A stretch of 64,000 bases of DNA from Chloroflexota bacterium (GCA_016875915.1 VGOM01000005.1:23418-87417), one strand, 5' to 3'; positions 4,070 through 34,875 are shown, counted from the first letter of the stretch. Numbers and translations: made by a program. The notes: a model not told the origin generated them from the sequence alone.

Positions 4070-4996
4070 TCAGACAGCCTGTCCACCCAGCACCCTGAGC
4101 AGGACTGCCTTCTGAATATGGAGCCGGTTCTCCGCCTGGTCGAAGACCACCGACCTGGGGTGGTCAAGGAGTCCTTCGGCAACCTCCTCACCGTGATGGG
4201 CCGGCAGGGGATGCATCAAGATAGCATCTTCTCCGGCCAGTGACAAGAGCGGCTCATCCACCTGATACGCGGCGAAGGCCCGGCGGCGGGTCTCCGCCTC
4301 CGACTCCTGTCCCATGCTAGTCCACACATCGGTGTACACCACGGCGGCGCCCTTCACGGCGGTCCGGCAGTCGGAGGCAACGGATATGCGGGCTCCGCTC
4401 TTGGCGGCGGAGGCCTTCGCCTGACCCATGGTGGCATCATCCAGTCCATAGCCCGGCGGCGAGGCGATGCAGAAGTCCATGCCCGCCAGCGAGGCAACCA
4501 GGAGCAGGCTCCGGGCCACGTTGTTGCCGTCGCCGACATAGGCCAAACGCAATCCCTTGAGGGCCCCCCGCTTCTCATGGATGGTGAGCAGATCGCCCAG
4601 CGCCTGGCAGGGATGCTCGTGATCGGATAGGCCGTTGATCACGGGCACCCGCGAGTGCCGGGCCAACTCAATCAGCGTCTGATGGGAGTAGGTCCGGCCC
4701 ACGATGCCATCCACGAAGCGGCTCAGGGTCCGGGCTACGTCCGGGATGCTCTCCCTCTTGCCCAGCCCCACCTCCTCCGGCGAGAGATAGACCGCGTGCC
4801 CTCCCAGTTGCCAAATGGCCACGTCGAAGCTGACCCGGGTGCGCAGAGAGGGCTTCTCAAAGACGAGGGCAATGGCCTTGCCTTTGAGAGAGCTGGGGGC
4901 TTCTCCCTGTTTCAGGCTGGCTGCCCTGCTGATGAGGCCCCGAATCTCTTCGGCAGTCAGATCAGCTACTGAGAGCAGGCCTGCTGGAATTGCCAA
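4070..4996 (-). CDS. argF: Ornithine carbamoyltransferase
   Basis: SLRTR carbamoyl-phosphate motif, HPLP...EEV ornithine-binding region; TTG start at 4994-4996 lying inside 3' end of upstream gene. Confidence 0.85.
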   Translation of the reverse strand: MAIPAGLLSVADLTAEEIRGLISRAASLKQGEAPSSLKGKAIALVFEKPSLRTRVSFDVAIWQLGGHAVYLSPEEVGLGKRESIPDVARTLSRFVDGIVGRTYSHQTLIELARHSRVPVINGLSDHEHPCQALGDLLTIHEKRGALKGLRLAYVGDGNNVARSLLLVASLAGMDFCIASPPGYGLDDATMGQAKASAAKSGARISVASDCRTAVKGAAVVYTDVWTSMGQESEAETRRRAFAAYQVDEPLLSLAGEDAILMHPLPAHHGEEVAEGLLDHPRSVVFDQAENRLHIQKAVLLRVLGGQAV

Positions 4997-6114
4997 GACT
5001 TACCTTCTGTTCTGATCGCCGGCGCGATGACCATTTCCACCTGGTGCATCTGGGCGATGGTGGTCGCGCCGCAGACGCCCATGGCTGTTTGCAGTGCACC
5101 GATGAGGTTCTGTGTCCCATCGCTGACCGTGGTCGGTCCGAAGAGGATCTGCTTCAGCGGCGCACGGGTGTCCACCTTGATCCTTCTCCCCCGGGGCAAT
5201 GCCGGGTGGGGGCTGGCCATGCCCCAGTGGTAGCCTCCACCGGGGGCTTCTTCTGCCTGGGCCAGGATGGCACCGAGCATCACCGCGTCGGCGCCGGCCA
5301 CAATGGCCTTGTTCAGATCGCTCCCAGCATGGATGCCCCCGTCGGTGATCAGTGGCACGTAGCGTCCCGTTTCATGGAAGTAGTCATCCCGGGCAGCGGC
5401 GCAGTCCATGGTGGCCGTCACCTGGGGCACACCTATGCCCAGCACCTGCCTGGTGGTGCAGGTGGCTCCGGGCCCGACTCCGACCAGAAGTCCGGCGATG
5501 CCGGTCTTCATCAGTTCCAGGGCGGCGCTGTAGCTGACGCAGTTGCCGACCACAACGGGTATGGGCACCGACCGGCACAGCTCGGAGAAGATCAGCCCCT
5601 TGAGGCTCTTGGACGTATGCCGGGCGGTGGTCACGGTGGACTGGACGACCAGCACATCGGCGCCGGCTTCGACCATGACGGGGGCCAGCCTCTTGGTGTT
5701 GGCCGGTGTGACGGAGACGGCGCAGATCCCGCCCAGCTTCTTGATGGTCCGGATCCTCTCGCCGACGAACTGCTCCTTGATCGGCTGGGTGTAGACCTGC
5801 TGTATCAGGGCGGCCACCTTGTCGCCGGGGGCCGCAGCGATCTGATGGAGGATCTCCTCCGGCTTCTCGTAGCGGGATTGGACACCCTCGAGATTGAGCA
5901 CGGCCAGACCGCCCAGCTTGCTGAACAGCGCGGCGAACTTCGGGTTCACCACGGCATCCATGGCGGCGGCCACAATGGGGATGGAGAAGGTCAGATCGCC
6001 CAGGGTGAAATCGGTGCAGGTCTGTTCGGGGTTGACCGAGACGTCGCCGGGCACAATGGCCACCTCTTCAAAGCCATAGCAGCGTCTCATCTCCTTGAAC
6101 GAACGACCGGCCAT
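4966..6114 (-). CDS. IMP dehydrogenase/GMP reductase family protein (no CBS domains)
   Basis: TIM-barrel IMPDH fold with catalytic-Cys loop GVGPGATCTTR; ATG at 6112-6114 (MAGRSFKEM...); six-frame ORF upstream extension is unsupported. Confidence 0.75.
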   Translation of the reverse strand: MAGRSFKEMRRCYGFEEVAIVPGDVSVNPEQTCTDFTLGDLTFSIPIVAAAMDAVVNPKFAALFSKLGGLAVLNLEGVQSRYEKPEEILHQIAAAPGDKVAALIQQVYTQPIKEQFVGERIRTIKKLGGICAVSVTPANTKRLAPVMVEAGADVLVVQSTVTTARHTSKSLKGLIFSELCRSVPIPVVVGNCVSYSAALELMKTGIAGLLVGVGPGATCTTRQVLGIGVPQVTATMDCAAARDDYFHETGRYVPLITDGGIHAGSDLNKAIVAGADAVMLGAILAQAEEAPGGGYHWGMASPHPALPRGRRIKVDTRAPLKQILFGPTTVSDGTQNLIGALQTAMGVCGATTIAQMHQVEMVIAPAIRTEGKSWQFQQACSQ

Positions 6115-6340
6115 GATGTCACCCCGGAGGAATGTTGCCCCAAAATATATCAAAGAGGACGCAGGCAAGTCAATTTGGGGCCACGCGGGGGGTCGGAAAG
6201 CCGCGGACGGGAACAAAGGGGAGTAGCCCGTCAGGCTGCGGTTGACAGTCGAAGCAACGGCGGCTAGGCTGGAGCCGGCCGGAGCGAAGTGCCCGGGTAT
6301 TGTCCGGCCAACAAGCCGGGGAACTGGGAAGGGGGCAAGG

Positions 6341-7903
6341 ATGGGGACTGATTTCGATGCCATCGTAGTAGGTGCCGGCCACAACGGACTGTCGGCGGCC
6401 ACTGTGCTGGCCAGGAACGGGCTGTCAGTCCTATGCGTGGAGAAGAACGGCTGGGCCGGGGGCATGGCGGCCACCAAGGAGCTGTTCAAGGGCTTCAAGC
6501 ACAACGTGGGCGCCTGGGGCATGCTGGTCTTCCGCGACGAGATGCTCAAACGTCTGGAGTTGGAGAAGTACGGGCTGAAGCTCAACAGGCCGCGCAGCTC
6601 GTACTGCACCTTCGGCGAACCGGGGGACGCGCCTTTCATCGGCTACACGGATATCAACGAGATAGCCAATCACCTGATGAAGGACCACGGGCCGGACGCC
6701 CTGGAGGGGCTGGCGGGAATGTACAACTTCCTACAGAAGTTCAAGGCAGTGTCCGACAGGGATCTCTTCACAGAGGCCCGGCCGCTGGACAGACTGATCG
6801 CGGACGCCCCTGATGACGAGACAAGGAGCATCATCCTCAAGGTCTTCCAGGGCAGGGCCATAGACATCATCCGTCAGTTCTTCCCTGACCCCACCAAGCA
6901 CCGCATCATCCAGGCATCGCTGAGCGCTTCTGCCGTTGACGGGACGTACAAGAGCCCGTTCTCACCGGGCAGCGGGTTCTCACTGGCATACCACTACTGT
7001 ATGAGCGATTCGTATGACTTCCGGACCCCGAAAGGCGGCATTGGGGCTTTCTCGGAGGCGCTGGTGAGGGCGTTCGAGGACCATGGCGGCAAGGTGAAAT
7101 ACGGGGCTCCGGTCAAACGGCTCCTGATCGAGAAGGGAAAGGCCATCGGTGTACAGCTCAGAAACGGCGAGAAGATCTCTGCCAAGGTGGTGATATCCAA
7201 TCTGGATGCCTACGCCACATTCATCGGTCTGGTGGGCGAAGACCAGCTTCCTTCCGACTTCATCCATGCGGTGAAAGAGATCGAGTACCAGAATGGGTAC
7301 ATTCAGGTCCACATGACGCTCAAAGAGATGCCCGAGTTCACCGGCCATGTGGCCTTTGCCAACGAAAACAACATCCGCTGGATCATGGCCTATATCCCAT
7401 CGCCGGAGTATCTGGCCCGCTGCTGTGAGCAGTACCGGCAGGGCCAGGTCCCGGATGAGCCGGTGGCCTACTGCGGCTTCCCCAGTGTCCTTGATCCGAG
7501 CCTGGCACCGGCGGGCTACTACACCTGCACTCTCTTCAGTCAGTATTTCCCGTTCGCAGCACCACGTGACAAGATCAAGGAGCTCAGCCGGGTGATGGCC
7601 GATCGAGCGATAGGTCAGATAGCGGAATTCGCCCCCAACTTCAAGGCGGCGATCATGGACAAGGTTGTCTTCACGCAGCAGTACTTCGAGAGTACCTACG
7701 GGGCTACCCAGGGTGACTATGCCAACGGGCTGATACACCCCGGACAGATGTGGAACAACCGGCCGGTGCCTGGCTGGGGAGGTTACGCCACACCGGTCAA
7801 AGGCCTGTACATGTGCGGTTCCGCCTGCCATCCCGGTCCGGGGATCACCTGTGTCCCGGGCTGGAACGGTGCCCAGCGCGTGCTGCAGGACTGGAAGAAG
7901 TAG
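6341..7903 (+). CDS. FAD-dependent oxidoreductase, phytoene desaturase (CrtI)-like family
   Basis: N-terminal Rossmann dinucleotide motif DAIVVGAGHNGL; ~520 aa amine-oxidase/CrtI-like architecture; GGAAGGGGGCAAGG SD before ATG 6341. Confidence 0.7.
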   Translation: MGTDFDAIVVGAGHNGLSAATVLARNGLSVLCVEKNGWAGGMAATKELFKGFKHNVGAWGMLVFRDEMLKRLELEKYGLKLNRPRSSYCTFGEPGDAPFIGYTDINEIANHLMKDHGPDALEGLAGMYNFLQKFKAVSDRDLFTEARPLDRLIADAPDDETRSIILKVFQGRAIDIIRQFFPDPTKHRIIQASLSASAVDGTYKSPFSPGSGFSLAYHYCMSDSYDFRTPKGGIGAFSEALVRAFEDHGGKVKYGAPVKRLLIEKGKAIGVQLRNGEKISAKVVISNLDAYATFIGLVGEDQLPSDFIHAVKEIEYQNGYIQVHMTLKEMPEFTGHVAFANENNIRWIMAYIPSPEYLARCCEQYRQGQVPDEPVAYCGFPSVLDPSLAPAGYYTCTLFSQYFPFAAPRDKIKELSRVMADRAIGQIAEFAPNFKAAIMDKVVFTQQYFESTYGATQGDYANGLIHPGQMWNNRPVPGWGGYATPVKGLYMCGSACHPGPGITCVPGWNGAQRVLQDWKK

Positions 7904-7967
7904 CGAGCGCGCCGAACTCGGTGGCCCCAGGGTCCATGCTAGAATAGGCGCAGGCAGAAGTCCAAAG

Positions 7968-10361
7968 ATGGGAATCATGGCCCAAGCCACAAGCCAAGTA
8001 GCGACATCTGATGTCCCGCATGCCTCTGAACGGTTCAGCCGCATCAAGAAGGAGCTGCATTGTACGCCGGTGGCCCTGTGCCCGGAGCGGGCTGTCCTGA
8101 TCACCGACTACTTCAAGCACCACGACAATCCCAGGGAGCCCACCATCGTCCGCAGGGCGAAGGCATTGCGCCACCTCCTGAGGCAGAAATCAGTCAAGAT
8201 CTATCCCGATGAACTGGTCGTGGGCAATATGGGCACCCAGAGGGTCTCGGCCATCATCCAACCCGAGCTGGCCGGCCTGTTTATGAGCACCGAGCTGCTG
8301 TGGATAGACAGGCGGAAGACCAACCCGCTGCGCACGGCCTGGCGGGACCGAATCAAGCTCCTGCTGGGGGTGTACCCATACTGGCTGCGGCGCAACATGC
8401 CCTTCAGTGCATTCTCGCCGCACTACAGGCAGTTCCTGCGCTTCGCGCTGGAGCAACTGGACTCCACCTACTACCTCATCAACGAGGCCGGGGGCATCGG
8501 GCATTTCCTGCCCAACTACGAGAAGATGCTCAGGCTGGGGGTGAAGGGCTACCTGGCCACCATGGAGGGCAGGCAGGGCGACCTGTACGAGGCGGCGCGG
8601 ATCGCCTGTGAAGGGCTGGTTGGCTTCGCCCGGCGCTGCGCGGAGGAGGCGGAACGCCTAGCGGCCGAGGAGAAGGATCTGACCAGGGCAGGAGAGCTGA
8701 AGGAGATTGCCCGCATCTGCCACAAAGTGCCGGAGCATCCGGCGGAGACACTCCACGAGGCCCTGCAGTCGCTGTGGCTGACCCACCTGGCGGTGAACCT
8801 GGAGGGGCTTAACTCGGCCATCTCCTTCGGCAGGATAGACCAGTACCTCTACCCATACTACAGGAGCGACCTGGAGAAGGGCAGGATCACCGCGGACGAG
8901 GTTCGGGAGCTGCTGCTCTGCTTCTCAGCCAAGTGCACGGAGCACGTCTTCCTGCTCTCGGAGAAGGTCAGCCAGTACCACGGCGGCTACCTGGTGGTCC
9001 AAGCGGCGACGGTGGGGGGCATGGACCGCAACGGACAGGACGCCGTGAACGACCTGACCTACCTCTTCCTGGACGTCATGGAGCAAGCGGGCCTGAGGGA
9101 CCCGAACTACCAGGCGCGGGTCCATGCCGGCAGTACGGAGAAGTACCTCAGGCGGGTGGCAGAGGTGGCCAAAAAGGGCAATGCAGTCCCGGCCCTGTTC
9201 GGTGACGAAGCCGCCATAGCCTCCCTCGAAGCGCACGGCTACCCCGCGGAGGAAGCCCGCGACTACGGGGTGGTAGGCTGTGTGGAGCTGGCCTTGCCCG
9301 GGAAGAGCTTCTTCTCCACCGATGCCGGCCTGTTCAACTTGCCGCTGTGCCTGGAGTTGGCGCTGAACAGCGGCAAGCGCTTCGGGAGGCGGCAGAGGAT
9401 AGGCGTGGCCACGCAGGATCCGGAGACATTCACCTCAATTGAGGAGGTGATGGATGCGTTCCGCCGTCACGTAGAGCACATGGCGGACCGTATGGTGGCC
9501 GACCTGCAGGTGATCGAGAAAGGCAACCGGGACTATCATCCCACGCCTCTCTCATCCATGCTGGTGGACGGCTGCCCGGAGACGGGCAGGGATGTGACAG
9601 CCGGGGGAGCACGGTACAACTCCAGCGGAGTCCAGGGCGTGGGTGTGGCCGATGTGGCCGACTCGCTGGCCGCTCTCGATCAGGTGATCTTCCAGGGCCG
9701 CAAATACACCATAGCCGAGGTACTGAAGGCTCTGCGGGCCAACTTCAAGGGCGCTCTGGAAATCCAGGCCGCGCTGTCGCAGTCCCCGAAGTACGGCAAT
9801 GACCACCAGTCGCCGGACCGTTACGCCGATGCTGTGGCACGGATCTTCCATGATGCCCTGGCCGGGCACGTCAACATGCGGGGAGGCCGGTACGTGCCGG
9901 GCTTCTACTCCGTGACCTGCCATATCGCCTTCGGCAAGAAGGTCGGTGCTTTGCCCAGCGGCAGGAAGGCCGGCGAACCCTTTGCAGCCAGCCTGGGTCC
10001 GGCCAATGGGCGGGACCGACTGGGGCCCACAGCCCTGCTCAACTCGGTGGCCCATGTTGACTCCAGACTGGCACCCAACGGCTATGCCCTCAACCTCCGC
10101 TTTGACCCGGCCACCCTGGGTGGTGATGGAGGGGTGGACATACTGATGGGCTTGGTCAAGGGCTTCTTCGGCTCCGGGGGGATGGAGATGCAGCTGAACG
10201 TGCTCGACCCCAAGATGCTTGAGGATGCCCGCCTTCACCCCGGCAAGTACCCCGAACTGGTGGTGCGCGTATCGGGCTATTGCGCCTACTTCGACGACCT
10301 CCCCGATGATGCCAAGCTGGAGATCATCTCCCGCACCCGCCTGGGGTTCGGGGTGACCTAG
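7968..10361 (+). CDS. Glycyl radical enzyme, PFL2/glycerol-dehydratase-like clade (C-x-E active site)
   Basis: C-terminal glycyl-radical motif VVRVSGYCAYF; internal GCVELA (Cys-x-Glu) as in glycerol dehydratase/CutC/HypD/HPAD; ~800 aa; no activase adjacent. Confidence 0.85.
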   Translation: MGIMAQATSQVATSDVPHASERFSRIKKELHCTPVALCPERAVLITDYFKHHDNPREPTIVRRAKALRHLLRQKSVKIYPDELVVGNMGTQRVSAIIQPELAGLFMSTELLWIDRRKTNPLRTAWRDRIKLLLGVYPYWLRRNMPFSAFSPHYRQFLRFALEQLDSTYYLINEAGGIGHFLPNYEKMLRLGVKGYLATMEGRQGDLYEAARIACEGLVGFARRCAEEAERLAAEEKDLTRAGELKEIARICHKVPEHPAETLHEALQSLWLTHLAVNLEGLNSAISFGRIDQYLYPYYRSDLEKGRITADEVRELLLCFSAKCTEHVFLLSEKVSQYHGGYLVVQAATVGGMDRNGQDAVNDLTYLFLDVMEQAGLRDPNYQARVHAGSTEKYLRRVAEVAKKGNAVPALFGDEAAIASLEAHGYPAEEARDYGVVGCVELALPGKSFFSTDAGLFNLPLCLELALNSGKRFGRRQRIGVATQDPETFTSIEEVMDAFRRHVEHMADRMVADLQVIEKGNRDYHPTPLSSMLVDGCPETGRDVTAGGARYNSSGVQGVGVADVADSLAALDQVIFQGRKYTIAEVLKALRANFKGALEIQAALSQSPKYGNDHQSPDRYADAVARIFHDALAGHVNMRGGRYVPGFYSVTCHIAFGKKVGALPSGRKAGEPFAASLGPANGRDRLGPTALLNSVAHVDSRLAPNGYALNLRFDPATLGGDGGVDILMGLVKGFFGSGGMEMQLNVLDPKMLEDARLHPGKYPELVVRVSGYCAYFDDLPDDAKLEIISRTRLGFGVT

Positions 10362-10644
10362 GCTTGCTTCGCTTCAGCCCCACCATCGCCATCTGGCAGG
10401 CCAATGGCTTGAAGGTGGCAGTGACACAACGTGCCCGTCGATGGGCAGCTGACTCTGCAGAGGTAGCCACGCTGGCCTCCAGGCGAGAGCGCGGCCAGTC
10501 CGTGATCACGCCTGGGGGTGAATGGTACAGAGGTTCAGCAAACGGGGATTGGCCCCGATGGCGGGGCAGGGCTCCCCAAGGTGGGGGCTCGCAAGGCGCT
10601 GCATCTGGCGAGCCGCCTCTGCGTTCCCAGGCCACGACTACGGT

Positions 10645-12309
10645 CTATGCAGGCTGTACCCCTGTCATGGTGGCCACATGACGGCCGGCAATCATGCCAA
10701 AGACCATAGCCGGCCCTATCGTTGATCCAGGACCGGGGTACGTACGCCCCATGACTGAGGCTGCGTTGTTGCCTGCCGCGTAGAGGCCACGGATGACCGA
10801 GCCATCCTTGCGCAGCACACGCGCGTGCTGGTCAATGACAAGCCCGCCCATTGTGCCCAAATCGCCCGGCCAGACCTTCAATGCATAGAAAGGCGGTTTC
10901 TCGATTGGTCCGAGGTTGGGATTCGGTTTGACCCTCGGGTCGGAGTAGAAGCGATCATAGGCGCTGTCCCCACGATGGAAGTCCTCGTCCCTTCCGTTTC
11001 TGGCGAACTGAGAGAACCTCTTGGCGGTGGCCATCAGACCAGCCTCGTCGATTCCCATCTTGCGGGCGAGTTCCGGGAGCGAGTCAGCCTTGGTGATGAT
11101 GCCATTCCTATACGCTGACTTCGGTGTAATACGCGGCATCATGTCGGTCCCGATTATGTAGTTGTTGCGATGCCGTGAATCGAGGATGAGATATGCCGGA
11201 ATCGCTGGCACGACCCTGTTGCGCTGATACTGTTGGTGGCCACAGTCAACGTAGGACTGTGACTCGTTCATGAATCGCTGGCCGGAGCTGTCAACTATCA
11301 TGCTGTACGGCATGGAGCGCTCGAAAAGCAATGTCCAAGGACCGCTCTTCAACCTGAGTGTCGGCATCCACCAGGCTTCATCCATCATGGCGACGGCGGC
11401 TCCGACGTCAATTCCGGCCTGGATACCACCCCCCGTATTGCCCGGGGCACCCACCGTCCACTCGGTGGTGATGGGGTGTTCCTGGTACTGCTGCCGCATT
11501 GCATCATTGTGTTCAAAGCCACCCGCAGCGAGTATGACACCACGCCTGGCCAGGATACGTATGTCCTTGCCATCTCTCTTGGCGGTGACACCTACAACGG
11601 CATCGCCTTCCGCTATGAGGCCCACCAGAGGGGTGTTGATCCAGACCGAGACGGAGCGGTCGAGTAGGATCTTGAGCAACTGGCCAACAAGCGCCCCACC
11701 CATGGAAATGCGCCGCTTGCCCATCATTCTCCACAGGACTGTGCGCCTAAGGACAACATCCATCGTGGTGCTGAACCCACTCCAGGTGCGCAGGAATAGG
11801 GGCAAGCTGCGAGCTTCAACGGCTCGCAGTGGCACGGGCATAGCCTGCACCCTGTCTTTCCACTCCTTCCCAAGCAGACGAGGGTCAAACAGCTCGCTCT
11901 CCAGGCAGCGACCCTGGGCGCAACCGCCGGCACGCTCAGGGTAGTAGTCCGGATAGCCTCGGGCAAAGACAGCCTTGAACCCCAGACTTTCGAGCCATTT
12001 CAGCATGTCAGGACCGGTCTTGAGATAGGTCTCACGAAGCTCTTTGGAGCTAGCCGGGCCCTTCTCCGGGATGACCTCATTCATATAGGCCAGCGCTGCC
12101 TCATAGGAGTCATCAACTCCGCACGCCTTCATGAGGTGGCTGTTCGGAATCCAGAAACCACCCCCCGACTTGGCGGTCGAACCCCCGACGCTGTCCATAC
12201 TCTCGAGGACAATCACTTCGCATCCGGCATCACGAGCAGCTACCGCCGCCGTCAGGCCCCCAGCGCCTGATCCTACAACGACGACGTCTATTGCATGTTC
12301 GAATCCCAT
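10645..12309 (-). CDS. FAD-binding dehydrogenase, 3-ketosteroid delta1-dehydrogenase (KstD)/fumarate-reductase flavoprotein-like
   Basis: DVVVVGSGAGGLTAA Rossmann motif, C-terminal GLYAAGNNAASVMGRTYPGPGSTIGPAMVFG typical of FAD_binding_2 KstD-like enzymes; GGAGG SD before ATG 12309. Confidence 0.7.
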   Translation of the reverse strand: MGFEHAIDVVVVGSGAGGLTAAVAARDAGCEVIVLESMDSVGGSTAKSGGGFWIPNSHLMKACGVDDSYEAALAYMNEVIPEKGPASSKELRETYLKTGPDMLKWLESLGFKAVFARGYPDYYPERAGGCAQGRCLESELFDPRLLGKEWKDRVQAMPVPLRAVEARSLPLFLRTWSGFSTTMDVVLRRTVLWRMMGKRRISMGGALVGQLLKILLDRSVSVWINTPLVGLIAEGDAVVGVTAKRDGKDIRILARRGVILAAGGFEHNDAMRQQYQEHPITTEWTVGAPGNTGGGIQAGIDVGAAVAMMDEAWWMPTLRLKSGPWTLLFERSMPYSMIVDSSGQRFMNESQSYVDCGHQQYQRNRVVPAIPAYLILDSRHRNNYIIGTDMMPRITPKSAYRNGIITKADSLPELARKMGIDEAGLMATAKRFSQFARNGRDEDFHRGDSAYDRFYSDPRVKPNPNLGPIEKPPFYALKVWPGDLGTMGGLVIDQHARVLRKDGSVIRGLYAAGNNAASVMGRTYPGPGSTIGPAMVFGMIAGRHVATMTGVQPA

Positions 12310-12570
12310 CTTGTGGCCTCCCGTCTCCCTCCGTCCAGCACTCGCAGCCTGACAATAGAACATGATCCCCATATTGCCAGTCGTTCGTCAACTTCCTGGT
12401 GTTGGTGCCCTGCCCCACCGGTTGTGGCTCTTCTCGGGGTGCAGTCGTCGGAATGAGGGACAACTCGAAGCTCGGGGGTCCTGACATTCTCCAGCCCTGC
12501 TTCCCTGACACTCCTGCACCTGCCGCCATGATTGTGGACCCCACACGGGGATGCTATACTTCCAGGCCTG

Positions 12571-13479
12571 ATGAAGCCGGTCATAGAAGTTGAGCACCTG
12601 AGGAAGGGCTATGCCTCCGTGGTCGCCGTTGACGACGTGTCTTTCAGTGTGGCAGATGGGGAGATATTCGGTCTGCTCGGGCCGAACGGGGCGGGGAAGA
12701 CCACCACGGTGGAGTGCCTTCAGGGCCTGCGCCGGGCCGATGGTGGCCACCTCCAGGTTCTGGGGATTGATCCGCAGTCACAGGCCGGCCAACTCCGCGC
12801 CTTGATGGGCTCGCAGTTGCAGGAATCGGCGCTGCCCGACCGGATCAAGGTCTGGGAGGCCCTGGACCTGTTTGCCTCGTTCAGCCCGCATAGCGCCGAC
12901 TGGCCCACACTGATGGAGCAGTGGGGCCTGTCAGCCAAGCGGAATGCTTCCTTCTCCAGTCTCTCCGGCGGCCAGCGGCAGCGCCTGTTCATCGCCCTGG
13001 CTCTGGTCAACAGGCCCAAGGTGGTCTTCCTCGACGAGATGACTGCCGGACTGGACCCGGGAGCGCGGCGGGGGGCATGGGAGCTCATCCGGGGCATCCG
13101 TGATGGAGGGGCCACGGTGGTGCTGGTGACGCATTTCATGGACGAGGCGGAGAACCTGTGCGACCGCCTGGCCATTGTGGACCATGGCAGGATCGCAGCA
13201 CTGGGCACGCCGCGTGATCTGATCACCGAGTACGCCGGTGAAGTGCGGGTGACCTTCAGCGCCGGGGAGGCCGATCTCTCCTGGCTGGCCGAGATACCGC
13301 ACGTGCGCCAGGTGAAGCGGCGCGGCCCGGTGGTGGAAGTAGCCGGGGACGGCCCGATGGCGGTGCTGGTGGCCGGCGGCCTGGTGCAGCACGGAATGAC
13401 GCCGGCCGATCTGCGCACGGAGCAGTCTACCCTGGAGGACGTGTTCCTGAAACTGACCGGCAGCGGCATGGGGAACTGA
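12571..13479 (+). CDS. ABC transporter ATP-binding protein (ABC-2 type)
   Basis: Walker A GPNGAGKTT, signature LSGGQRQR, Walker B VVFLDE; start chosen at MKPVIEVEHL. Confidence 0.85.
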   Translation: MKPVIEVEHLRKGYASVVAVDDVSFSVADGEIFGLLGPNGAGKTTTVECLQGLRRADGGHLQVLGIDPQSQAGQLRALMGSQLQESALPDRIKVWEALDLFASFSPHSADWPTLMEQWGLSAKRNASFSSLSGGQRQRLFIALALVNRPKVVFLDEMTAGLDPGARRGAWELIRGIRDGGATVVLVTHFMDEAENLCDRLAIVDHGRIAALGTPRDLITEYAGEVRVTFSAGEADLSWLAEIPHVRQVKRRGPVVEVAGDGPMAVLVAGGLVQHGMTPADLRTEQSTLEDVFLKLTGSGMGN

Positions 13480-13488: not shown

Positions 13489-14229
13489 GTGCGCACACTG
13501 CTCAAGCTGACCTGGGTGGAACTGAAGCTCTTCGTACGGGAGCCGGTGACCATGTTCTTCACTCTCGTCTTTCCGATCATCGTTCTGTTTGTGATGGGCG
13601 GCGTCTTCGCGAATACGCCCGATCCGGATGCCTGGCGGGGGGTGGGGGCGATGAACTTCTATACCCCGGCGTACATCGGGCTGGTCATCGCCTCCATAGG
13701 GTTGGTCGGTCTACCGGTGCACCTGTCCGGCTACCGCGAGCGCGGGGTGCTGCGGCGGCTGCGGGCGTCGCCGATCCATGTGCTGAGCATCTTCAGCTCG
13801 CAGATCCTGGTCAGTTTCGTGATCGCCGTCGTGGGGGCCATCGTTATCACCGCAGTCGCCATGCCGGTGTATGACGTGGCGGCTCCGGAGGACCTCGCCC
13901 TGCTGCTGGCGGCGTTTGTGATCAGCGTGCTGACCTTCGCGTCCATCGGGATCCTGCTGGGGTCAGTGCTGCCCACAACCAGGGCGGCGCAGGGCGTCGG
14001 ACTGGTGCTGTTCTTCATCATGTTCATGATCTCGGGCGGGGGCCCGCCGCCTGAAGTCATGAACGAGCCGATGCGGAGACTGGCGGACCTGACACCGCTG
14101 AAGTATGTCATCATCATGCTTCAGGACCCGTGGCTGGGTTTCTCCTGGAACATGGCCAACTTCGGGATCGTGGCGGGGTTCCTGGTGGTGCCGGGACTGC
14201 TCTCCGTGCGGTTCTTCCGCTGGGAGTAG
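13489..14229 (+). CDS. ABC-2 family transporter permease
   Basis: Six predicted TM helices, ABC-2 permease-like; immediately follows ATPase gene; GTG start. Confidence 0.75.
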   Translation: MRTLLKLTWVELKLFVREPVTMFFTLVFPIIVLFVMGGVFANTPDPDAWRGVGAMNFYTPAYIGLVIASIGLVGLPVHLSGYRERGVLRRLRASPIHVLSIFSSQILVSFVIAVVGAIVITAVAMPVYDVAAPEDLALLLAAFVISVLTFASIGILLGSVLPTTRAAQGVGLVLFFIMFMISGGGPPPEVMNEPMRRLADLTPLKYVIIMLQDPWLGFSWNMANFGIVAGFLVVPGLLSVRFFRWE

Positions 14230-14273: not shown

Positions 14274-15440
14274 TCAGCCGACCGCGCCCATCCGCCGCAG
14301 TTCGCTGATGTGGCTTTCGGCGTAGCCCATCTCGCGCAGAATCTCGTCGGTGTGCTGTCCAAAACCGGTGGCCCAGTTCCTCATCTCCACAGGGGAATCA
14401 CTGAGCCTGTGCATCGAGCCGATCTGTTTGAGGCGGCCCGCCACGGGATGGTCGGATTCCAGGATCATCCGGCGCGCGATCAACTGGGGGTCGAATTCCA
14501 CCTCATCGATGCCGAGGACCGGAGCGAAGCAGGTGTCAGCATGCATGAGCAGCGCGGTCCACTCGTCCCGCGTTCCGGTCCCGAACTTCCCGGCGAAGAA
14601 CTCGAACATCTCGTCCCGCTTCCTGCCCTCGTCGAACTGATGGGGGATGAACTGCTCGCAGTCCAGGAGCCGGCACAGATTGGCGAAGAACTTGGGCTCG
14701 AATGTGGCGATGGTGACGTGCTTCCCGTCCTTCGTCTCGTAGACGTTGTACCAGGGGTATTTGCCGTTCCAGATGGTTTCGCCCCGCTTGGGGACTGTTC
14801 CCCGATTGTAGAGGTAAGGATTGGTCTGCATCGAGGTCACTTCCGTTATGGCATCGGTGATGGAGACATCCAGGAACCGGCCCTGGCCCGTCCGTTCCCG
14901 CGCCATGAGCGCCGCCAGGATGCCCACTCCGGCAGACAGGCCGCCGCACCAGTCGGCGATGACCGACCCGGGTATGGACGGCTTCCCGCCCTTCGGTCCG
15001 GTCAGGTCGAGAAAACCGCTGATGGCCAGGTAGTTCAATTCATGCCCCACTATGTCCCGATAGGGCCCGTCCTGCCCGTAGCCGGACAGGGATGCGTAGA
15101 TGATCCGGGGGTTGACCGCCTTGATGGTCTCGTAGTCAATGCCAAGGCGCTTGACCACGCCGGGGCGGAATCCCTCCATGACCACATCGGCGCTACCGGC
15201 CAGATCCTGGTAGACTTTCCTGCCCACTTCCATCTTCAGATTGACGCCGAATGTGCGGCAGTTGCGCAGGCCGGGATAGTCACTGAAGACCATCATGGTC
15301 AGCGCGCCATGGGTCTCCGGGTCAACATCTGAGATCCTGATGACGTCGGCGCCCAGGTCACTGAGCATTTCGGTGCAGAAGGCGCCGGGGCCGGTCCAGC
15401 ACATGTTCATTATCTTGATGCCATCGAGCGCCAGTGCCAT
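14274..15440 (-). CDS. CoA-transferase family III (CaiB/BaiF/BbsF-like)
   Basis: N-terminal IKIMNMCWTGPGAFCTEMLSDLGADVI and central catalytic region typical of family III CoA transferases; AAGGAG SD before ATG 15440. Confidence 0.8.
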   Translation of the reverse strand: MALALDGIKIMNMCWTGPGAFCTEMLSDLGADVIRISDVDPETHGALTMMVFSDYPGLRNCRTFGVNLKMEVGRKVYQDLAGSADVVMEGFRPGVVKRLGIDYETIKAVNPRIIYASLSGYGQDGPYRDIVGHELNYLAISGFLDLTGPKGGKPSIPGSVIADWCGGLSAGVGILAALMARERTGQGRFLDVSITDAITEVTSMQTNPYLYNRGTVPKRGETIWNGKYPWYNVYETKDGKHVTIATFEPKFFANLCRLLDCEQFIPHQFDEGRKRDEMFEFFAGKFGTGTRDEWTALLMHADTCFAPVLGIDEVEFDPQLIARRMILESDHPVAGRLKQIGSMHRLSDSPVEMRNWATGFGQHTDEILREMGYAESHISELRRMGAVG

Positions 15441-15839
15441 TCTTCTTTCGTCAACTCCTTTCGGCATTCGTCGCGGCGGCCGAGACAAGCCGTCTGCGGG
15501 TTCTTCTGCAAACCCATCGACCATTATCCGGTTGTCCCTTCGGATACTCAAGTTGCGGGCTGCGGGGGCGAAACGCGCGGGGCACCCAGATTCCCCCATC
15601 AAGTGCGGCATGACACCTGCAGATCACAGACGCGCTTTGGCAAGGCCATCGGGTTGTGATATTATCCCAGCGGAAGACCCCGCATCCCGGTTTGGCTCCG
15701 TAGTCAGATGGAATACCCCAAGCGCCAGGTCATATCAGCCCCTTAGACTGCACAGAGAGTGTGAACCCAGTCTTGGAGAGCAGCTCGACGAATCCGTTTG
15801 GCGACCATTTGCCCCAGAACGGAAGCAAGGAGGAAGGAA

Positions 15840-16232
15840 ATGCCTGTCTTTGAGAGTACAGAGAAGATGTACGATGTGCTGGGGACCCTGTTCAATGTGC
15901 TGGCCTCAGACCCGGTGGTCGGTCCGAAGTACCGGGAGTCGAACATCGTCATCAAGTTCACCATAACCGACCCCGACGGGTTCATCTGGTTGGACAGGGA
16001 CGCGAAGGTGATCTGCGGCCCGGCGGACCTGAAGCCGACGATAGAGATGACCCTGAGCGGCGACACCTGCCACCAGTTCTGGCTGCAGTCGATCTCCATG
16101 CCAGTGGCCCTGGCCAAGGGCCGGATCAAGGCAAAGGGGCCACTGCCGAAGGTGATCAAGCTGCTGCCCTTGCTGAAGCCAGCATACGCAGCCTATCCCG
16201 GAATCGCCAAGAAGCACGGTCTCCCCGTCTAG
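15840..16232 (+). CDS. SCP2 sterol-carrier-protein-2 domain protein
   Basis: ~130 aa SCP2-like fold; AAGGAGGAAGG SD before ATG 15840. Confidence 0.6.
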   Translation: MPVFESTEKMYDVLGTLFNVLASDPVVGPKYRESNIVIKFTITDPDGFIWLDRDAKVICGPADLKPTIEMTLSGDTCHQFWLQSISMPVALAKGRIKAKGPLPKVIKLLPLLKPAYAAYPGIAKKHGLPV

Positions 16233-16251
16233 GAACTGCCAGGAGGTTAGC

Positions 16252-16929
16252 ATGGCCAAGGAAGCCAGCATGAAGCAATTCGAGGAAGACAGGAAGGAAG
16301 CGACCAGGATCGCGGCACGGCTGCTGCTCGCATCGGGGACGACTTCGCCCAGAGTCGGAGGCGTCGGCGAGACAACGATACATATCATTGATGACGAGTG
16401 CCAGATCGAGGAGCTGTGCCAGGCCGTGGAGAGGATGGCCGAGGAGAACAAGCGTTGGGGGTTCTTCAAGAGGGACGCGGTGATGCTGCGGGATGCGGAT
16501 GCGGTGCTGATAGTGACCTCGCTGCGCTGTCTGTCCGATCCGGGCGACTTCAACTGCAATTTGTGCGGGAAGCTGACCTGTGAATACAAGAGGCAGGCCG
16601 ATATGCTGCCGAATGAGCCGGGGATCGCCTTCCCGGGCCCGCTGTGCATCTTCAGGGCCAACAACGTGGGCTACGCCATCGACAGCATGGTGGCCCTGGC
16701 CAGGAATCTGGGCATTGACTACGGCGTGTACTGGTCGGCGGGAGCGGCGGCGATGAGAATGAGGATCGTGCCCAAGAGCACAGGCTTCGCCCTGGCGGTG
16801 GCCATATCGGCCACGGAGAAGAGCCCCTTCCGGGATATCCCCAAGAAGTACGCTGAGATCAATGAGGCCACGATGAACGATCGGATCATCAAGAGGCTGT
16901 GGCCCCAGTTCCGCTCGATATACAGCTAG
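16252..16929 (+). CDS. Cys-motif ferredoxin-like protein, DUF2148-like (paralog 1)
   Basis: CNLCGKLTC (C-x2-C-x4-C) motif and PGPLCIF...GYAIDSM region; AGGAGG SD; paralogous to next gene. Confidence 0.4.
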   Translation: MAKEASMKQFEEDRKEATRIAARLLLASGTTSPRVGGVGETTIHIIDDECQIEELCQAVERMAEENKRWGFFKRDAVMLRDADAVLIVTSLRCLSDPGDFNCNLCGKLTCEYKRQADMLPNEPGIAFPGPLCIFRANNVGYAIDSMVALARNLGIDYGVYWSAGAAAMRMRIVPKSTGFALAVAISATEKSPFRDIPKKYAEINEATMNDRIIKRLWPQFRSIYS

Positions 16930-16955
16930 GGCAGTACGGAGAAGGAGTGAGGACG

Positions 16956-17612
16956 ATGGCGATACGGGAGTCAGACGAGATGCTGCAGAGCGGGCTGGAC
17001 AGGGCCGTTGACCTCATGGCTGTCGCCGCCCACAACAGCTTCCGCTTCGGGGGGGTGGATACGGTGAAGTTGATCTGCGCCGGGAAAGAGGAGATCGTGA
17101 ACATCGCGGAGTTCTGCTACTCCATGGGCGACATGTCCCCCCTGGCCGCCCGGGACGGCAGGTTCGCCATGGAACTGGTGAAGGAACCGTGCGCCCTGCT
17201 GATAATGGGGGATAAGAGGAAGTCCGATTTCAACTATGACTGCGGCGCGTGCGGCTATAGGACGTGCCGCGAGATGAACAAGGCAGAGTGCGTTGAGGCG
17301 CTGACCGGGAACGGTCCGAGCTGCCAGTTCAAGAACATGAATGTGAACATAGCCGCCGACGCCGCCGCGGCCATGGCCTGGAGGCTGGGGCTGCATTGCA
17401 GGGTTTACAGTACGCTGGGCATGGCAGCCTTCGCACTGAAGGTGATCGACGACGTGGATTTCGCCGTCAGCGTATGCGTCAGCGTGGCCAGGAGAGACCC
17501 TTTCTTCGACAGGCATCAGTTCTGGACTGACGAATACTGGGACGAGATATTCAGGAAGGAATTCCCCACTTACACCCGAGGGTTCATCGGGGCCGTCGAG
17601 GACGAGGGCTAG
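16956..17612 (+). CDS. Cys-motif ferredoxin-like protein, DUF2148-like (paralog 2)
   Basis: DCGACGYRTC motif, alignable with upstream paralog; GGAGAAGGAG SD before ATG 16956. Confidence 0.4.
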   Translation: MAIRESDEMLQSGLDRAVDLMAVAAHNSFRFGGVDTVKLICAGKEEIVNIAEFCYSMGDMSPLAARDGRFAMELVKEPCALLIMGDKRKSDFNYDCGACGYRTCREMNKAECVEALTGNGPSCQFKNMNVNIAADAAAAMAWRLGLHCRVYSTLGMAAFALKVIDDVDFAVSVCVSVARRDPFFDRHQFWTDEYWDEIFRKEFPTYTRGFIGAVEDEG

Positions 17613-17627
17613 ACGGGGGCGGCATAC

Positions 17628-19238
17628 ATGAGCAAGGCCCATCTGAATCAGGTTATCGCGTCGCACCTGGCGGAGATCAAGGCAGAGGAAGACCCGGGCA
17701 GGGTGATCTACATCTTCGAGAAGGGCGACCTCGGCGAGGACGCGGTCACCTACGAGGCCCTCTATGCCAACTCGAACAAGATAGCGCGATTCCTTCTGGA
17801 CCGCGGCATTGGCAAGGGCGATACATACGCCGTGTTCATGAGAAACCATCCGGAGTTCGTGTACTCCCTGCTGGCCGGGCCGACCATAGGAGCGGTGATG
17901 GTGCCCATAGACCCGCGGTCGAGGGGCGACCGGCTGAGGTTTCTGCTCCGGGACTGCGGGGCCAAGGCGGTGGTGGTTTCGGGCGAGTGCCTGGGGCAGC
18001 TTGAGGAGGTGGTCAAGGATGTGCCTTACCTGAAGCTGATCTCCGTTGCCCACAGGCCGGAACAGGGTATCCCGGTGACCGGGAAGCACCACGTGTTGAA
18101 CGAAGTCCTGGAGAAGACCTCGTGGAACGCCGTGGAGCAGCAGATAATGGACGTCCGCCATCCGATGCAGATCATCTATACCTCGGGGACAACAGGGGAC
18201 CCCAAGGGCGTGGCCATACGGAACAACAGGACGGGACTGTTCAACATCCTGACCAAGATCGTCTGGAAGTACGACAACAGCGACGTCCTGTACAACGGGC
18301 TGTCGCTGACACACGGCAATGCTCAGACGGTGACCCTGTTCCCGGCTTTCGCCATGGGGATCAAGGCGGTGTTCAGCGCCCGGTTTACCAAGACCAGGAT
18401 ATGGGGCATATGTCGGAAGTACGGTTGCACCTCGTTCTCTCTGCTGGGCGGGATGATGGCGGGGATATACAACGAACCGGAGAGGCCGGATGACGGGGAC
18501 AACCCGGTGCGGGTGGTGATCAGCGCAGGTACACCGCCGCCGCTGTGGGAGGGATTTGAGAAGCGGTTCAATGTGAAGATCCTGGAGTGGTACGGCTCCG
18601 TGGAGGGGGGGTTCGCCTACAAACCGATCGGAGATGGCCCGATAGGGTCATTCGGCAAGCCGGTGCCCGGTGTGATGGAGATGAAGGTGGTGGATGACGA
18701 GGACAGGGAGGTACCCGCGGGGCAGACCGGCGAGCTGATCTCCAGGCTGCTCCGGGGGGAGACCAAGGTGGACTACCTGGGGAAGCCGGAGGAGTCCAAG
18801 GAGAAGACCAGGGGCGGCTGGCTGAGGACGGGGGATATGGTCCATAAGGACAAGGAGGGGTGGTATTTCTTCGACTACAGGAAGGGGACGGAACTGCGCA
18901 GAGCGGGCGACTTCATTCAACCGGACTACATCGAGACGGTGATTGGAAAGCACCAGGATGTGAGCGAGGTCTGCGTCTACGGGATTCCGTCGGCCTCGGG
19001 AGCGCCGGGGGAGAGCGATCTGGTGGCGGCGGTGTCCCCGCTGGAGGGACACGCCATAGACCCCAGATCGGTCTTCGACCTGTGCAAGAAGGAGATGGCA
19101 GCCAACTACATCCCGACCTACCTTCACGTCCTGGAGGAACTGCCCAAGACGCTGACGGAGAAGCCACTGACCCGCGAGCTGAAGCAGTTGGCCGAACAGG
19201 GGGTGGGCAGAATGTACAGGTTCGAGGACTACAGGTAG
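17628..19238 (+). CDS. AMP-dependent acyl-CoA synthetase/ligase
   Basis: AMP-binding signature IIYTSGTTGDPKG, C-terminal GWLRTGD...K motif. Confidence 0.85.
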   Translation: MSKAHLNQVIASHLAEIKAEEDPGRVIYIFEKGDLGEDAVTYEALYANSNKIARFLLDRGIGKGDTYAVFMRNHPEFVYSLLAGPTIGAVMVPIDPRSRGDRLRFLLRDCGAKAVVVSGECLGQLEEVVKDVPYLKLISVAHRPEQGIPVTGKHHVLNEVLEKTSWNAVEQQIMDVRHPMQIIYTSGTTGDPKGVAIRNNRTGLFNILTKIVWKYDNSDVLYNGLSLTHGNAQTVTLFPAFAMGIKAVFSARFTKTRIWGICRKYGCTSFSLLGGMMAGIYNEPERPDDGDNPVRVVISAGTPPPLWEGFEKRFNVKILEWYGSVEGGFAYKPIGDGPIGSFGKPVPGVMEMKVVDDEDREVPAGQTGELISRLLRGETKVDYLGKPEESKEKTRGGWLRTGDMVHKDKEGWYFFDYRKGTELRRAGDFIQPDYIETVIGKHQDVSEVCVYGIPSASGAPGESDLVAAVSPLEGHAIDPRSVFDLCKKEMAANYIPTYLHVLEELPKTLTEKPLTRELKQLAEQGVGRMYRFEDYR

Positions 19239-19277
19239 ACCCCTGTGAGGGATAGCGCCGATACGGAGGTGTGGTAG

Positions 19278-20513
19278 ATGCCATACACCGAACTGAATCT
19301 CGATCTGACTGAGGAACACAGGCTCATCAAGAGGGAGGTGCATGATTTCGCCGTCGAGGTGCTCAGGCCGGCATCCCTCGAGCTGGACAAGATGTCGCCA
19401 GAGGACGTGACCAGAAAGGGCTCGCCCTACTGGCAGTGCATGGCCCAGGCATACCGGAACAACTATCACACCGTGCTCATTTCCGACGAGTACGGGGGGC
19501 TGGGGCTGGACCCGCTGGGGGTGCACATCTTCTGGGAGGAGCTGTCCTACGGCAGCGTGGGGTTTGCCGTTTCGCTGGGGTGCAGCTGCTTCTCTTCCTT
19601 CTACGCCACGCTGCTCTGCGACGACTACTTGATAGAGAAGTTCGTGTTGCCATTCGTCAACTGCAAAGATGCCAGCGTGATGAGCTGCTGGGGGATCACC
19701 GAGCCGGCCCACGGTTCGGACAACCTGATGACGGGAACCCCCTTCTTCCGCGACCCCTGCGCCTGTCAGGAGGTGAGAGCGGTGAAGAAGCGGGGGAAGT
19801 GGGTGCTCAACGGGCAGAAGTCGGCGTGGGTCTCCAATGGCCCCATTGCATCCGATGCGGCTCTGTTCGTGAACCTCGATCCGGGCATGGGTTTCGCCGG
19901 GGGGGGCATAGCCCTGGTGGACCTCAACCAGAAGGGCATTTCCAGGGGCAAGCCGCTGAACAAGATGGGACAGCGGGAGCTGCCACAGGGGGAGATCTTC
20001 TTCGATGATGCGGTGTGCCCCGACGAACACATGATCATCGACCCCGAGAGCTACGAGGCGATCACGGAACTTACCCTGGGACACGCCAATGCCACCATGG
20101 GGGCGTACTTCACGGGCGTGGCCCAGGCGGCCTACGACATGGCCATGGAGTACAGCCGGGACCGGGTGCAGGGCGGGAAACCCCTTTGCCAGCATCAAAT
20201 GGTGCAGAGCAGGCTGTTCGACATGTTCATAGCCATCGAGACGGCCAGAGCCTTCTCGCGAAGCGCCATGGTGTTCAACATGAACACCACGCCGCCCCTG
20301 GTGCAGTACTCCATTGCTTCGAAGGTGTACTGCACGGAGGCGGCCTTCAAGGTGACCAGCGAAGCGGTGCAGCTGTTCGGAGGGCACGGCCTGACCAAGG
20401 ATGCCCCTGTGGAGAAGCTGTTCAGAGACGCCAGGGCGGGGATGATCGAGGACGGATCGAACGACTCGCTATCGCTGGCCGCCGGAGAGATGCTGCTGAG
20501 GGAGGTACAGTAG
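19278..20513 (+). CDS. Acyl-CoA dehydrogenase
   Basis: ACAD three-domain architecture (411 aa), GGAGG SD; stop overlaps thiolase start. Confidence 0.8.
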   Translation: MPYTELNLDLTEEHRLIKREVHDFAVEVLRPASLELDKMSPEDVTRKGSPYWQCMAQAYRNNYHTVLISDEYGGLGLDPLGVHIFWEELSYGSVGFAVSLGCSCFSSFYATLLCDDYLIEKFVLPFVNCKDASVMSCWGITEPAHGSDNLMTGTPFFRDPCACQEVRAVKKRGKWVLNGQKSAWVSNGPIASDAALFVNLDPGMGFAGGGIALVDLNQKGISRGKPLNKMGQRELPQGEIFFDDAVCPDEHMIIDPESYEAITELTLGHANATMGAYFTGVAQAAYDMAMEYSRDRVQGGKPLCQHQMVQSRLFDMFIAIETARAFSRSAMVFNMNTTPPLVQYSIASKVYCTEAAFKVTSEAVQLFGGHGLTKDAPVEKLFRDARAGMIEDGSNDSLSLAAGEMLLREVQ

Positions 20514-21760: not shown

Positions 21761-21867
21761 CACGCCGGAACGGGAGCCGCTGCCGGCACCCGGGCTCTGC
21801 GCCCACCGGGCAGAGAGGCTGAGGGGATGCCCTCCACGGAGATCTACCCAGTTCACCAATCCGGAGG

Positions 21868-22689
21868 TTGAGGGAATTGGCCAAGTACGACCTCACGGGG
21901 AGAACCGTGCTGATCACGGGCGCCTCAAGCGGCATAGGCAGGGAGCTGTCGAGGTGCTTTGCGGCCGAGGGCAGCAATCTGGTGCTGGGATGTCATCCAT
22001 CCGAGAAGGAGTCCCTGGAAGGGTTGATCGCTGAGCTGGCAGGCAGCCACGGGGTGAGGGTGTCAGGCTTGGCCATCGACCTTGCAGACAGCAGAGGACC
22101 GGAGGACTTCTACCATTCGGTCAGGCGGACTGCAGGCAGGATAGACGTGCTGGTCAACAATGCCGGAGTCCTGCACTACGGGTCTTTCGCGGACATACCT
22201 CTGGAGGATCACGAGCTGCTGGTCAAGCTGAATGTATTGGCATACTTGAAACTGATGCGGCTCTTCCTGGCGGACATGGTCAAGGCCGGGGAGGGCAGGA
22301 TACTCAACGTGGTGTCCGCGGCAGCCTTCCAGCCCACGGTGCACCATGCCACTTACGGGGCTTCCAAGGCATTCATGCAGAGTCTGAGCGAAGCGGTTGA
22401 CCAAGAGCTGAGAGGGACTGGTGTCAGGGTGTTCACCTTCAACCCTTCCTACACCAGGACGCCCCTCCTCAGCCGGGGAGGGTTTCCGGTCAAGATCTGG
22501 TGGTACAGGATCAGCGGTCTGAGCGATCCGGCCGACATGGCGCGACAGGCAGTGAGGGTCTTCAAGCAGGGAAAGCCGGTGTTCATCCCGGGGCTGAGGA
22601 ACTGGCTGGTGCATTCGATTCTGATCAGGCTGATGCCCAGAAGCCTGCTGAACGCCCTGGGCCGATGGGTATTGCGGGCCGAGGGCTGA
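21868..22689 (+). CDS. Short-chain dehydrogenase/reductase (SDR)
   Basis: TGASSGIG cofactor motif, YGASK catalytic motif; TTG start (alternative TTG at 21877). Confidence 0.8.
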   Translation: MRELAKYDLTGRTVLITGASSGIGRELSRCFAAEGSNLVLGCHPSEKESLEGLIAELAGSHGVRVSGLAIDLADSRGPEDFYHSVRRTAGRIDVLVNNAGVLHYGSFADIPLEDHELLVKLNVLAYLKLMRLFLADMVKAGEGRILNVVSAAAFQPTVHHATYGASKAFMQSLSEAVDQELRGTGVRVFTFNPSYTRTPLLSRGGFPVKIWWYRISGLSDPADMARQAVRVFKQGKPVFIPGLRNWLVHSILIRLMPRSLLNALGRWVLRAEG

Positions 22690-22715
22690 GATGGCCGCCC
22701 GGGTGCCCCCCGTCT

Positions 22716-34821: not shown

Positions 34822-34875
34822 GGCTTCTCCTCGCTCGGTCATTTCACGCAATGGTGAGCCGTGCCTTCTCTCCGG

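Follow-up and report, generated by a model that had tools for sequence, protein, structure and literature searches.

A conserved glycyl radical enzyme family of the Cys-x-Glu type without an adjacent activase gene in uncultured anaerobes

Background

All characterised eliminases and isomerases among the glycyl radical enzymes (GREs) share a Cys-x-Glu (CXE) motif, the glutamate of which is the base (review, 2026, PMC13450708). In glycerol dehydratase (GD) of C. butyricum this base is Glu435 and the proposed general acid is His164; the C-S lyases IslA, IseG and HpsG possess an Arg/Gln/Arg triad for sulfonate binding (both PMC13450708). The fumarate-binding arginine of the X-succinate synthases (XSS) is located 15 residues past the catalytic cysteine, as C493/R508 in BSS and C477/R492 in MASS. 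TdcE of E. coli, and likewise GrcA, is encoded without an activase of its own and is served by the activase of pyruvate formate-lyase (PFL), PFL-AE, which activates TdcE in trans. According to one view, the sequence of the Gly loop sets the specificity for the activase. We describe here a GRE gene on a stretch of 64,000 nt from a Chloroflexota bacterium (GCA_016875915.1, VGOM01000005.1:23418-87417), hereafter the window, to which all coordinates refer; L-numbers (L003, L055 and so on) are labels of the related loci that were compared.

The nearest solved relative of the encoded enzyme is PFL2 ('PflD', 2F3O) of A. fulgidus. Metagenome papers have interpreted PFL2-like relatives as alkylsuccinate synthases, but the sequence of the enzyme supports neither this function nor that of a PFL. 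New are the delimitation of a GRE family, the absence of an adjacent activase gene as a trait of that family and the lack of a neighbour conserved throughout it; the enzyme is otherwise a conventional-looking member of the GRE eliminases. Our literature search found no description of this GRE clade or of activase-unlinked eliminases.

Results and discussion

Enzyme class

The gene at 7968-10361 (+) codes for an intact, oxygen-sensitive GRE of 797 aa of the PFL2/eliminase type. It matches MBM4444211.1 ('formate acetyltransferase [Chloroflexota bacterium]') with 100 % identity and is therefore not an assembly artefact of the window; the same locus was also recovered, by independent assembly, from two JGI metagenome samples, 3300020083 and 3300020074. 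Both domains are intact (Pfam PFL-like, E 1.7e-178; Gly_radical, E 2e-25). A preliminary description, made from the DNA alone, had reported a 797-aa GRE with the motifs RVSGY and GCVE and had placed it in the Cys-x-Glu dehydratase/lyase clade, outside PFL and XSS. Both motifs were confirmed. The glycyl radical loop R-V-S-G770-Y-C772 (VVRVSGYCAYF) was located in the translation at 10266-10283 (codons of Gly770 and Cys772 at 10275-10277 and 10281-10283), and the Cys loop G-C438-V-E440 (VVGCVELAL), with the predicted thiyl radical site and general base, lies at 9279-9287.

Profile searches placed the protein near, but not in, the characterised groups. The NCBIfam subfamily model TIGR01774 (PFL2/glycerol-dehydratase) yielded 638 bits, under the cutoff of 678, and the equivalog models PflD, HypD, HpsG, HpfG, CutC, IAD, HPAD and PFL gave 170-490 bits against cutoffs of 994-1150. 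PflD, HypD, HpsG, CutC and HpfG scored 456-490 bits (cutoffs at least 1000; CutC, TIGR04394, 468 versus 1050), and the PFL model TIGR01255 scored 170 versus 994. The best match among solved structures was PFL2 (2f3o) with 498 bits and 36 % identity, and the enzyme is roughly equidistant from PFL2, a CutC (490 bits), GD (477 bits) and propanediol dehydratase (PD, 451 bits); PflD (8id0) followed with 441 bits. The identity to GD and PD is 31-32 %. E. coli PFL (1h16) reached 137 bits and the XSS structures of BSS and MASS 211-217 bits at 22-23 % identity. An AlphaFold2 (AF2) model from a 29-sequence family alignment (pLDDT 68.8, pTM 0.75), used for fold assignment only, had GD, PD and PFL2 as closest structures with a TM score of ~0.82. 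It supports the 10-stranded barrel fold of GREs with its catalytic cysteine (TM ~0.8), with low pLDDT in the core loops.

The catalytic residues of GD and PD are present. Alignment to GD (1r8w) pairs Cys433, Glu435, Asp447 and Tyr640 with Cys438, Glu440, Asp452 (codon 9321-9323, +) and Tyr647. In the alignments to PD the histidine of the GIGH motif, His179 (codon 8502-8504, +), coincides with that of 'GVGH' in 5i2a and 'GIGH' in 9rco, the GxGH histidine of PD. We take GD His164 and PD His166 to be the residue numbers equivalent to His179. Thus the enzyme shares with GD (1R8W) and PD (5I2A, 9RCO) the fold, the full His/Cys/Glu/Asp/Gly set and the Tyr640 equivalent. Differences are found at other positions. 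His281-Ser282 of GD and PD are replaced by Ser283-Ala284, Tyr339 of GD (Phe in PD) by Val344 and Ser642 of GD by Val649, at which position PD also has valine. His281-Ser282 and Tyr339 are, as we understand the GD and PD structure papers, presumably residues of the substrate pocket. The exchange of the His/Ser/Tyr/Ser of GD for Ser/Ala/Val/Val suggests a roomier and less polar pocket. Three pocket positions with polar residues in GD carry small or apolar ones in this enzyme, which makes a substrate larger or less polar than glycerol probable.

CutC has the CXE motif and a comparable similarity (417-490 bits), but an aspartate in its GGGD motif aligns with His179 of the GIGH motif, and a serine takes the place of Asp452. 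We take the GGGD aspartate to be Asp216, which presumably contacts the trimethylammonium group. No arginine is present at the positions presumed to be equivalent to those of the sulfonate triad (Gly175, Tyr647). Counted as an offset from the cysteine rather than by direct alignment with BSS or MASS, the position of the fumarate-binding arginine is Ala453, invariant in the alignment of 29 family members (A1), and there is no arginine within 439-460. The Cys loop reads Gly437-Cys438, thus the Cys-Cys dyad of PFL is absent. Neither the PFL-like Cys-Cys nor the BSS-like cysteine context, named earlier as refuting observations, was seen; the catalytic residues match the set of GD and PD. Assignment to the Cys-x-Glu eliminase group, and to neither PFL nor XSS, is supported by these comparisons; judged by sequence, the database name pyruvate formate-lyase/formate acetyltransferase is wrong. 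As substrate, an alcohol or amine, possibly derived from lipids or isoprenoids, had been suggested. The choice can be narrowed on the basis of the His/Glu/Asp set, which matches the C-O-cleaving diol dehydratases, with histidine in place of the CutC aspartate; the lipid or isoprenoid origin remains a guess.

A tight family in uncultured anaerobes

Database searches retrieved more than 120 clusters with 68-100 % identity to the enzyme, and a scan of species-representative genomes and metagenomes yielded 103 non-redundant family loci at an identity of at least 58 %. A sharp gap separates the family from the next clade (at most 46 %). The hosts are Dehalococcoidia/Chloroflexota, Desulfobacterota (Desulfobacteraceae, Syntrophales, Smithella), Actinomycetota (Geothermincolia, Anoxymicrobiaceae) and Leptospirales. 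For the phylogenetic placement called for in the preliminary description a neighbour-joining tree was made. In it the family members form a monophyletic group whose sister is the 41-46 % clade, the A. fulgidus PFL2 clade branches further out, and GD and PD stand apart among Firmicutes sequences. PFL2 resembles the enzyme in the GxxH histidine, G-C-V-E, the aspartate past the Cys loop and the alanine at the position of GD Ser282, and the tree places both in one broad group of environmental sequences. It belongs, however, to a separate clade, the 41-46 % clade being nearer to the family, and it has glutamine and asparagine where the enzyme has Ser283 and Val344, and RVAGW instead of RVSGYC.

Among 40 full-length family members (61-100 % identity) eight residues do not vary (H179, S283, A284, C438, E440, D452, Y647, G770); at position 344 either V or A occurs, at 649 either V or S. 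Sequences of other clades have the His179 equivalent in 34 of 35 cases and the Asp452 equivalent in only 18 of 35. The mean column identity in A1 is 78 %, and Gly770 as well as Cys772 are invariant there; the Gly loops of the family read VVRV[S/A]GYCAYFD[D/E]LP. The cysteine two residues past the radical glycine (GYC) is a separate observation, as the aligned solved GREs have serine or alanine at this position. Because the catalytic residues are invariant in 40 members of such divergence, the alignment points to strong purifying selection on the radical chemistry, not to a relic. By sequence, the family is tight, large, highly conserved and misannotated, and its members reside in uncultured sediment and lake anaerobes, not in Firmicutes as GD and PD do.

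Activase genes in the window and across the family

The earlier report that the 64 kb contain no radical-SAM activase, microcompartment shell protein or small subunit held in all searches. A six-frame scan for CxxxCxxC hit only two implausible shadow open reading frames (ORFs). With 35 GRE activases from related loci as queries, tblastn of the window gave a best E of 0.09, and a single BMC-H shell sequence as query found no match better than E = 0.09. Neither a Radical_SAM nor a BMC domain was detected by Pfam among 49 long ORFs of the window, no Cys-rich small ORF flanks the GRE gene, and the window holds no XSS-type beta or gamma subunit. In the 283-nt spacer 3' of the gene, the sole ORF (10364-10681) has one cysteine and no homologue outside this genome. 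The lack of an adjacent activase and of a microcompartment also sets the enzyme apart from GD and PD.

The comparison of related loci considered those as informative that had at least 1.5 kb on both flanks of the GRE gene. None of the 54 informative family loci (identity at least 58 %) has a directly adjacent activase gene, and two have one within 1.5 kb. In the sister clade (40-46 %) 9 of 15 informative loci, and in distant clades (<40 %) 9 of 18, carry an activase gene within 180 nt. For any activase within 1.5 kb the counts are 2/54 in the family versus 18/33 in the other clades (Fisher p = 6e-8). Only four family loci have an activase gene within 5 kb, each time directly behind another GRE gene. 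The absence of an activase gene beside the GRE gene is a trait of the whole family, not a peculiarity of the locus in the window; the Archaeoglobaceae homologues (L071, L072), in contrast, have an adjacent activase gene.

A conserved two-GRE arrangement on one strand was observed in L055 (4820-12400), L121 (4455-12382) and L165 (4539-12379). The order is a FadR/GntR-like regulator, a second GRE, an activase, a protein of ~290 aa (282-293 aa, no NCBIfam match) and the family GRE. This second GRE has 838 aa, is of the CXE type and is 32 % identical to the enzyme of the window. In these loci two GRE genes seem to depend on a single activase gene. In L003 the family GRE adjoins a different pair of GRE and activase; L046 begins the same arrangement before its contig ends. 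As a hint to the function the second GREs (L003, L048, L070, L165) were dropped, matching no characterised equivalog. Dehalococcoidia metagenome-assembled genomes, CAZKOL01 (L042, L070) and CAIYTC01 (L022, L067), encode a second, longer GRE of 880-900 aa, 34-36 % identical and likewise lacking an activase gene beside it; such unlinking may be frequent in the Dehalococcoidia lineage. By analogy with TdcE, the family GRE would most simply be activated in trans by an activase that is encoded with another GRE or elsewhere in the genome. The analogy concerns activation: TdcE is a formate-lyase and has the same Gly loop as PFL, whereas the family is of the eliminase type and its loop differs from those of the second GREs.

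Gene neighbourhood

In a search for an operon partner we clustered all ORFs up to 10 kb from the related loci, of which 57 were used at first and 170 later. Across 103 loci no neighbour is conserved family-wide, and none is common to more than ~15 % of the family loci. PAS sensors and response regulators, MCP-like proteins, AMP ligases, family III CoA-transferases and CCG-type Fe-S proteins recur without being universal; as a basis for substrate prediction they were rejected.

Upstream of the GRE gene in the window, on the same strand, lies a gene for a FAD oxidoreductase of the CrtI/phytoene-desaturase family (520 aa, 6341-7903, +; Pfam Amino_oxidase). Its matches to the NCBIfam models CrtO and crtI_fam are far under cutoff, and its E value with CrtI (4dgk) is 9.5e-11. 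The ORF stops with TAG, 64 nt before the GRE start and not 63 nt as first given. No terminator-like site was found on the plus strand of this gap, so that co-transcription of the two genes is plausible. Downstream, the GRE gene faces a KstD-like dehydrogenase and an ABC exporter, as had been described. The former is a flavoenzyme of the 3-ketosteroid delta-1-dehydrogenase family (KstD/AcmB-like, 575 aa, 10645-12372, -; alternative start at 12309), convergent with the GRE gene, with 698 bits in NCBIfam PRK12844 (cutoff 789) and 416 bits with AcmB (7p18) across the full length. The exporter is of the ABC-2 type (+) and consists of an ATPase (12532-13479; Pfam ABC_tran) and a permease (13489-14229; ABC2_membrane).

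The sandwich of the GRE gene between two flavoenzyme genes, to which the preliminary description had drawn attention, did not recur as a feature of the family. A KstD-like gene adjoins the GRE gene in this genome only. CrtI-family genes occur near the GRE gene only in the closest subclade (at least 80 % identity; 4 of 9 informative loci), and none lies within 10 kb in ~95 other family loci. L088, L089 and L113 (82-83 % identity) have one to three CrtI-family paralogues ~1 kb downstream of the GRE gene, the proteins of which are 25-28 % identical to that of the window and thus paralogues of it; the other close relatives L170 (86 %), L171, L172, L087 and L090 have different neighbours. At most, the two flavoenzymes beside the GRE are partners specific to the lineage; they do not define the enzyme. 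A limonene-degrading GRE was considered as a link to the CrtI-like protein and rejected, since it is a succinate synthase of the BSS type (61 % identity to BssA) and unrelated to the family. Three consecutive CrtI/phytoene-desaturase-family paralogues each were seen in L089 (6572-13938) and L088 (13353-17498), downstream of the GRE gene and a conserved Cys-rich membrane protein of 170 aa without family assignment; in L089 they are followed by a FAD-linked oxidase and an ETF subunit.

Proposed reaction and alternative functions

Taken together, the enzyme is most probably a catalytically competent, trans-activated 1,2-eliminase of the Cys-x-Glu type, with a substrate that is probably hydroxylated and less polar than glycerol; we assign this a probability of about 0.55. 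The motifs, their conservation, the alignments, the clade structure and the neighbourhood statistics are observations; the roles of the residues, the activation in trans and the class of the substrate are inferred, and the reaction sequence below is modelled on characterised relatives. The radical on Gly770 would be generated by a radical-SAM activase whose gene lies elsewhere in the genome, and would then move to Cys438. The thiyl radical of Cys438 would take a hydrogen atom from the carbinol carbon, while Glu440 would deprotonate the hydroxyl group of the same carbon. His179, aided by Asp452, would protonate the vicinal leaving group, which most probably is another hydroxyl, and water would leave. 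The product radical would regain hydrogen from Cys438 to give an aldehyde or ketone.

Several points weigh against this proposal. CXE together with the histidine is also present in ring-opening isomerases and HypD-type enzymes, so that a vicinal diol is only the likeliest option. The pLDDT of the AF2 model is below 50 at the active-site strands (166-181, 278-285, 324-346, 434-453, 647-687), for which reason pocket modelling was rejected and the pocket argument is one from sequence alignment. No activase for this genome was found in a search that covered the 64-kb window. Finally, the Gly loop of the family, RV[S/A]GYCAYF, differs from RITGYNAYF and RVAGFAAYF in the co-located second GREs; if the loop sets the specificity, a shared activase is therefore not obviously expected.

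The same CXE chemistry may have another outcome, either ring opening by an isomerase (PflD, YbiW, HplG-like) or C-N or C-S cleavage of an amino alcohol or hydroxysulfonate. The motif is common to isomerases and all eliminases (PMC13450708), PflD (8id0, 441 bits) falls little short of GD (477) and PD (451), and the family forms a clade of its own apart from both dehydratases. However, the His/Glu/Asp triad is exactly that of GD and PD, CutC has aspartate in the place of His179, and the scores of the HpsG, HpfG, CutC, HypD and PflD models (456-490 bits) are far from their cutoffs of at least 1000. We regard this alternative as possible but unlikely. A pathway of anaerobic isoprenoid or steroid degradation shared with the CrtI-like and KstD-like flavoenzymes is doubtful. 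It would agree with the apolar pocket positions, the short same-strand gap of 64 nt without terminator-like site and the CrtI-family genes ~1 kb downstream in L088, L089 and L113, part of the 4 of 9 loci of the closest subclade. These three loci may yet be a single lineage, their CrtI-like proteins are paralogues at 25-28 % identity, L170 (86 %), L171, L172 and L087 have other neighbours, ~95 further family loci lack a CrtI-family gene within 10 kb, and the KstD-like gene is restricted to this genome.

Fumarate addition to hydrocarbons by a 'PflD-type' alkyl- or arylsuccinate synthase, with the downstream genes as a bbs-like beta-oxidation module, is very improbable. The proposal has been made for A. 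fulgidus PFL2, PFL2-like genes of uncultured archaea are annotated accordingly, and genes for a family III CoA-transferase, an ACAD, an SDR and a thiolase-like protein are present at 14-23 kb. But beta-oxidation genes are not conserved beside family members, the window has neither beta and gamma small subunits nor an activase, the XSS structures score 211-217 bits (22-23 % identity) versus 498 for PFL2, the offset of the fumarate-binding arginine falls on the invariant Ala453, and the acid/base set of the dehydratases is kept. That the gene is a decaying, non-radical relic, never activated, can be given hardly any credit: the lack of an activase in the 64 kb and two family members split by frameshifts (L043, L055) would fit, but an identity of 61-86 % across four phyla with invariant Gly770, Cys438 and acid/base residues and a mean column identity of 78 % is incompatible with neutral decay. 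Least credible, and refuted at the level of sequence, is the function in the database name; the annotation as formate acetyltransferase and the Pfam PFL-like domain speak for a PFL, but Gly437-Cys438 is no Cys-Cys dyad, and TIGR01255 (170 versus 994 bits) and 1h16 (only 137 bits) are remote.

A bolder form of the proposed elimination is tentative: a widespread, nearly housekeeping-like GRE of uncultured sediment and lake anaerobes might carry out a radical elimination not described so far, with an apolar hydroxylated compound as substrate, such as a vicinal diol derived from a lipid, terpenoid or ether, and would depend on a promiscuous or shared activase. If true, it would break the rule of one GRE with one adjacent activase, and to deduce 'formate fermentation' or 'alkane activation' from these genes in metagenomes would be wrong. 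As a conserved target that combines a GD-like catalytic set with an altered pocket, the enzyme is a good candidate for a new anaerobic cleavage of C-O (or other) bonds, and the family, unlinked from an activase throughout, is a natural system in which to test how specific activases are and whether they are shared.

Wider context of the 64-kb window

Besides housekeeping genes, the Pfam analysis of the 49 long ORFs revealed a catabolic island for acyl-CoA compounds and two gene sets of the benzoyl-CoA-reductase/2-hydroxyacyl-CoA-dehydratase-like kind. The island (14274-23558; Pfam/NCBIfam) lies beside the KstD/AcmB-like gene and is reported as context without a link to the GRE. It codes for a family III CoA-transferase, an AMP ligase, an acyl-CoA dehydrogenase, a thiolase-like protein, an SDR, an acetoacetate-decarboxylase-like protein, two tandem DUF2148 ferredoxin-domain proteins and an ORF of 144 aa, SCP2-like in appearance but without Pfam or family match. 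The island resembles modules for the degradation of steroid or alicyclic side chains. On the other side, the mechanical ORF of an IMPDH/GMP-reductase-like gene (4966-6639, -) reaches ~185 codons further upstream than its domain, overlapping the start of the CrtI-like gene. The true start is probably near 6080, and a strong promoter-like site is located nearby on the minus strand (6173-6144). At 34000-42000 two sets of HGD-D subunits (2-hydroxyglutaryl-CoA dehydratase/benzoyl-CoA reductase-like) are accompanied by three genes for BcrAD/BadFG-type ATPases (34000-34851, 40117-40902 and 40910-41746), which indicates ATP-driven low-potential reductions or dehydrations, fitting a strict anaerobe.

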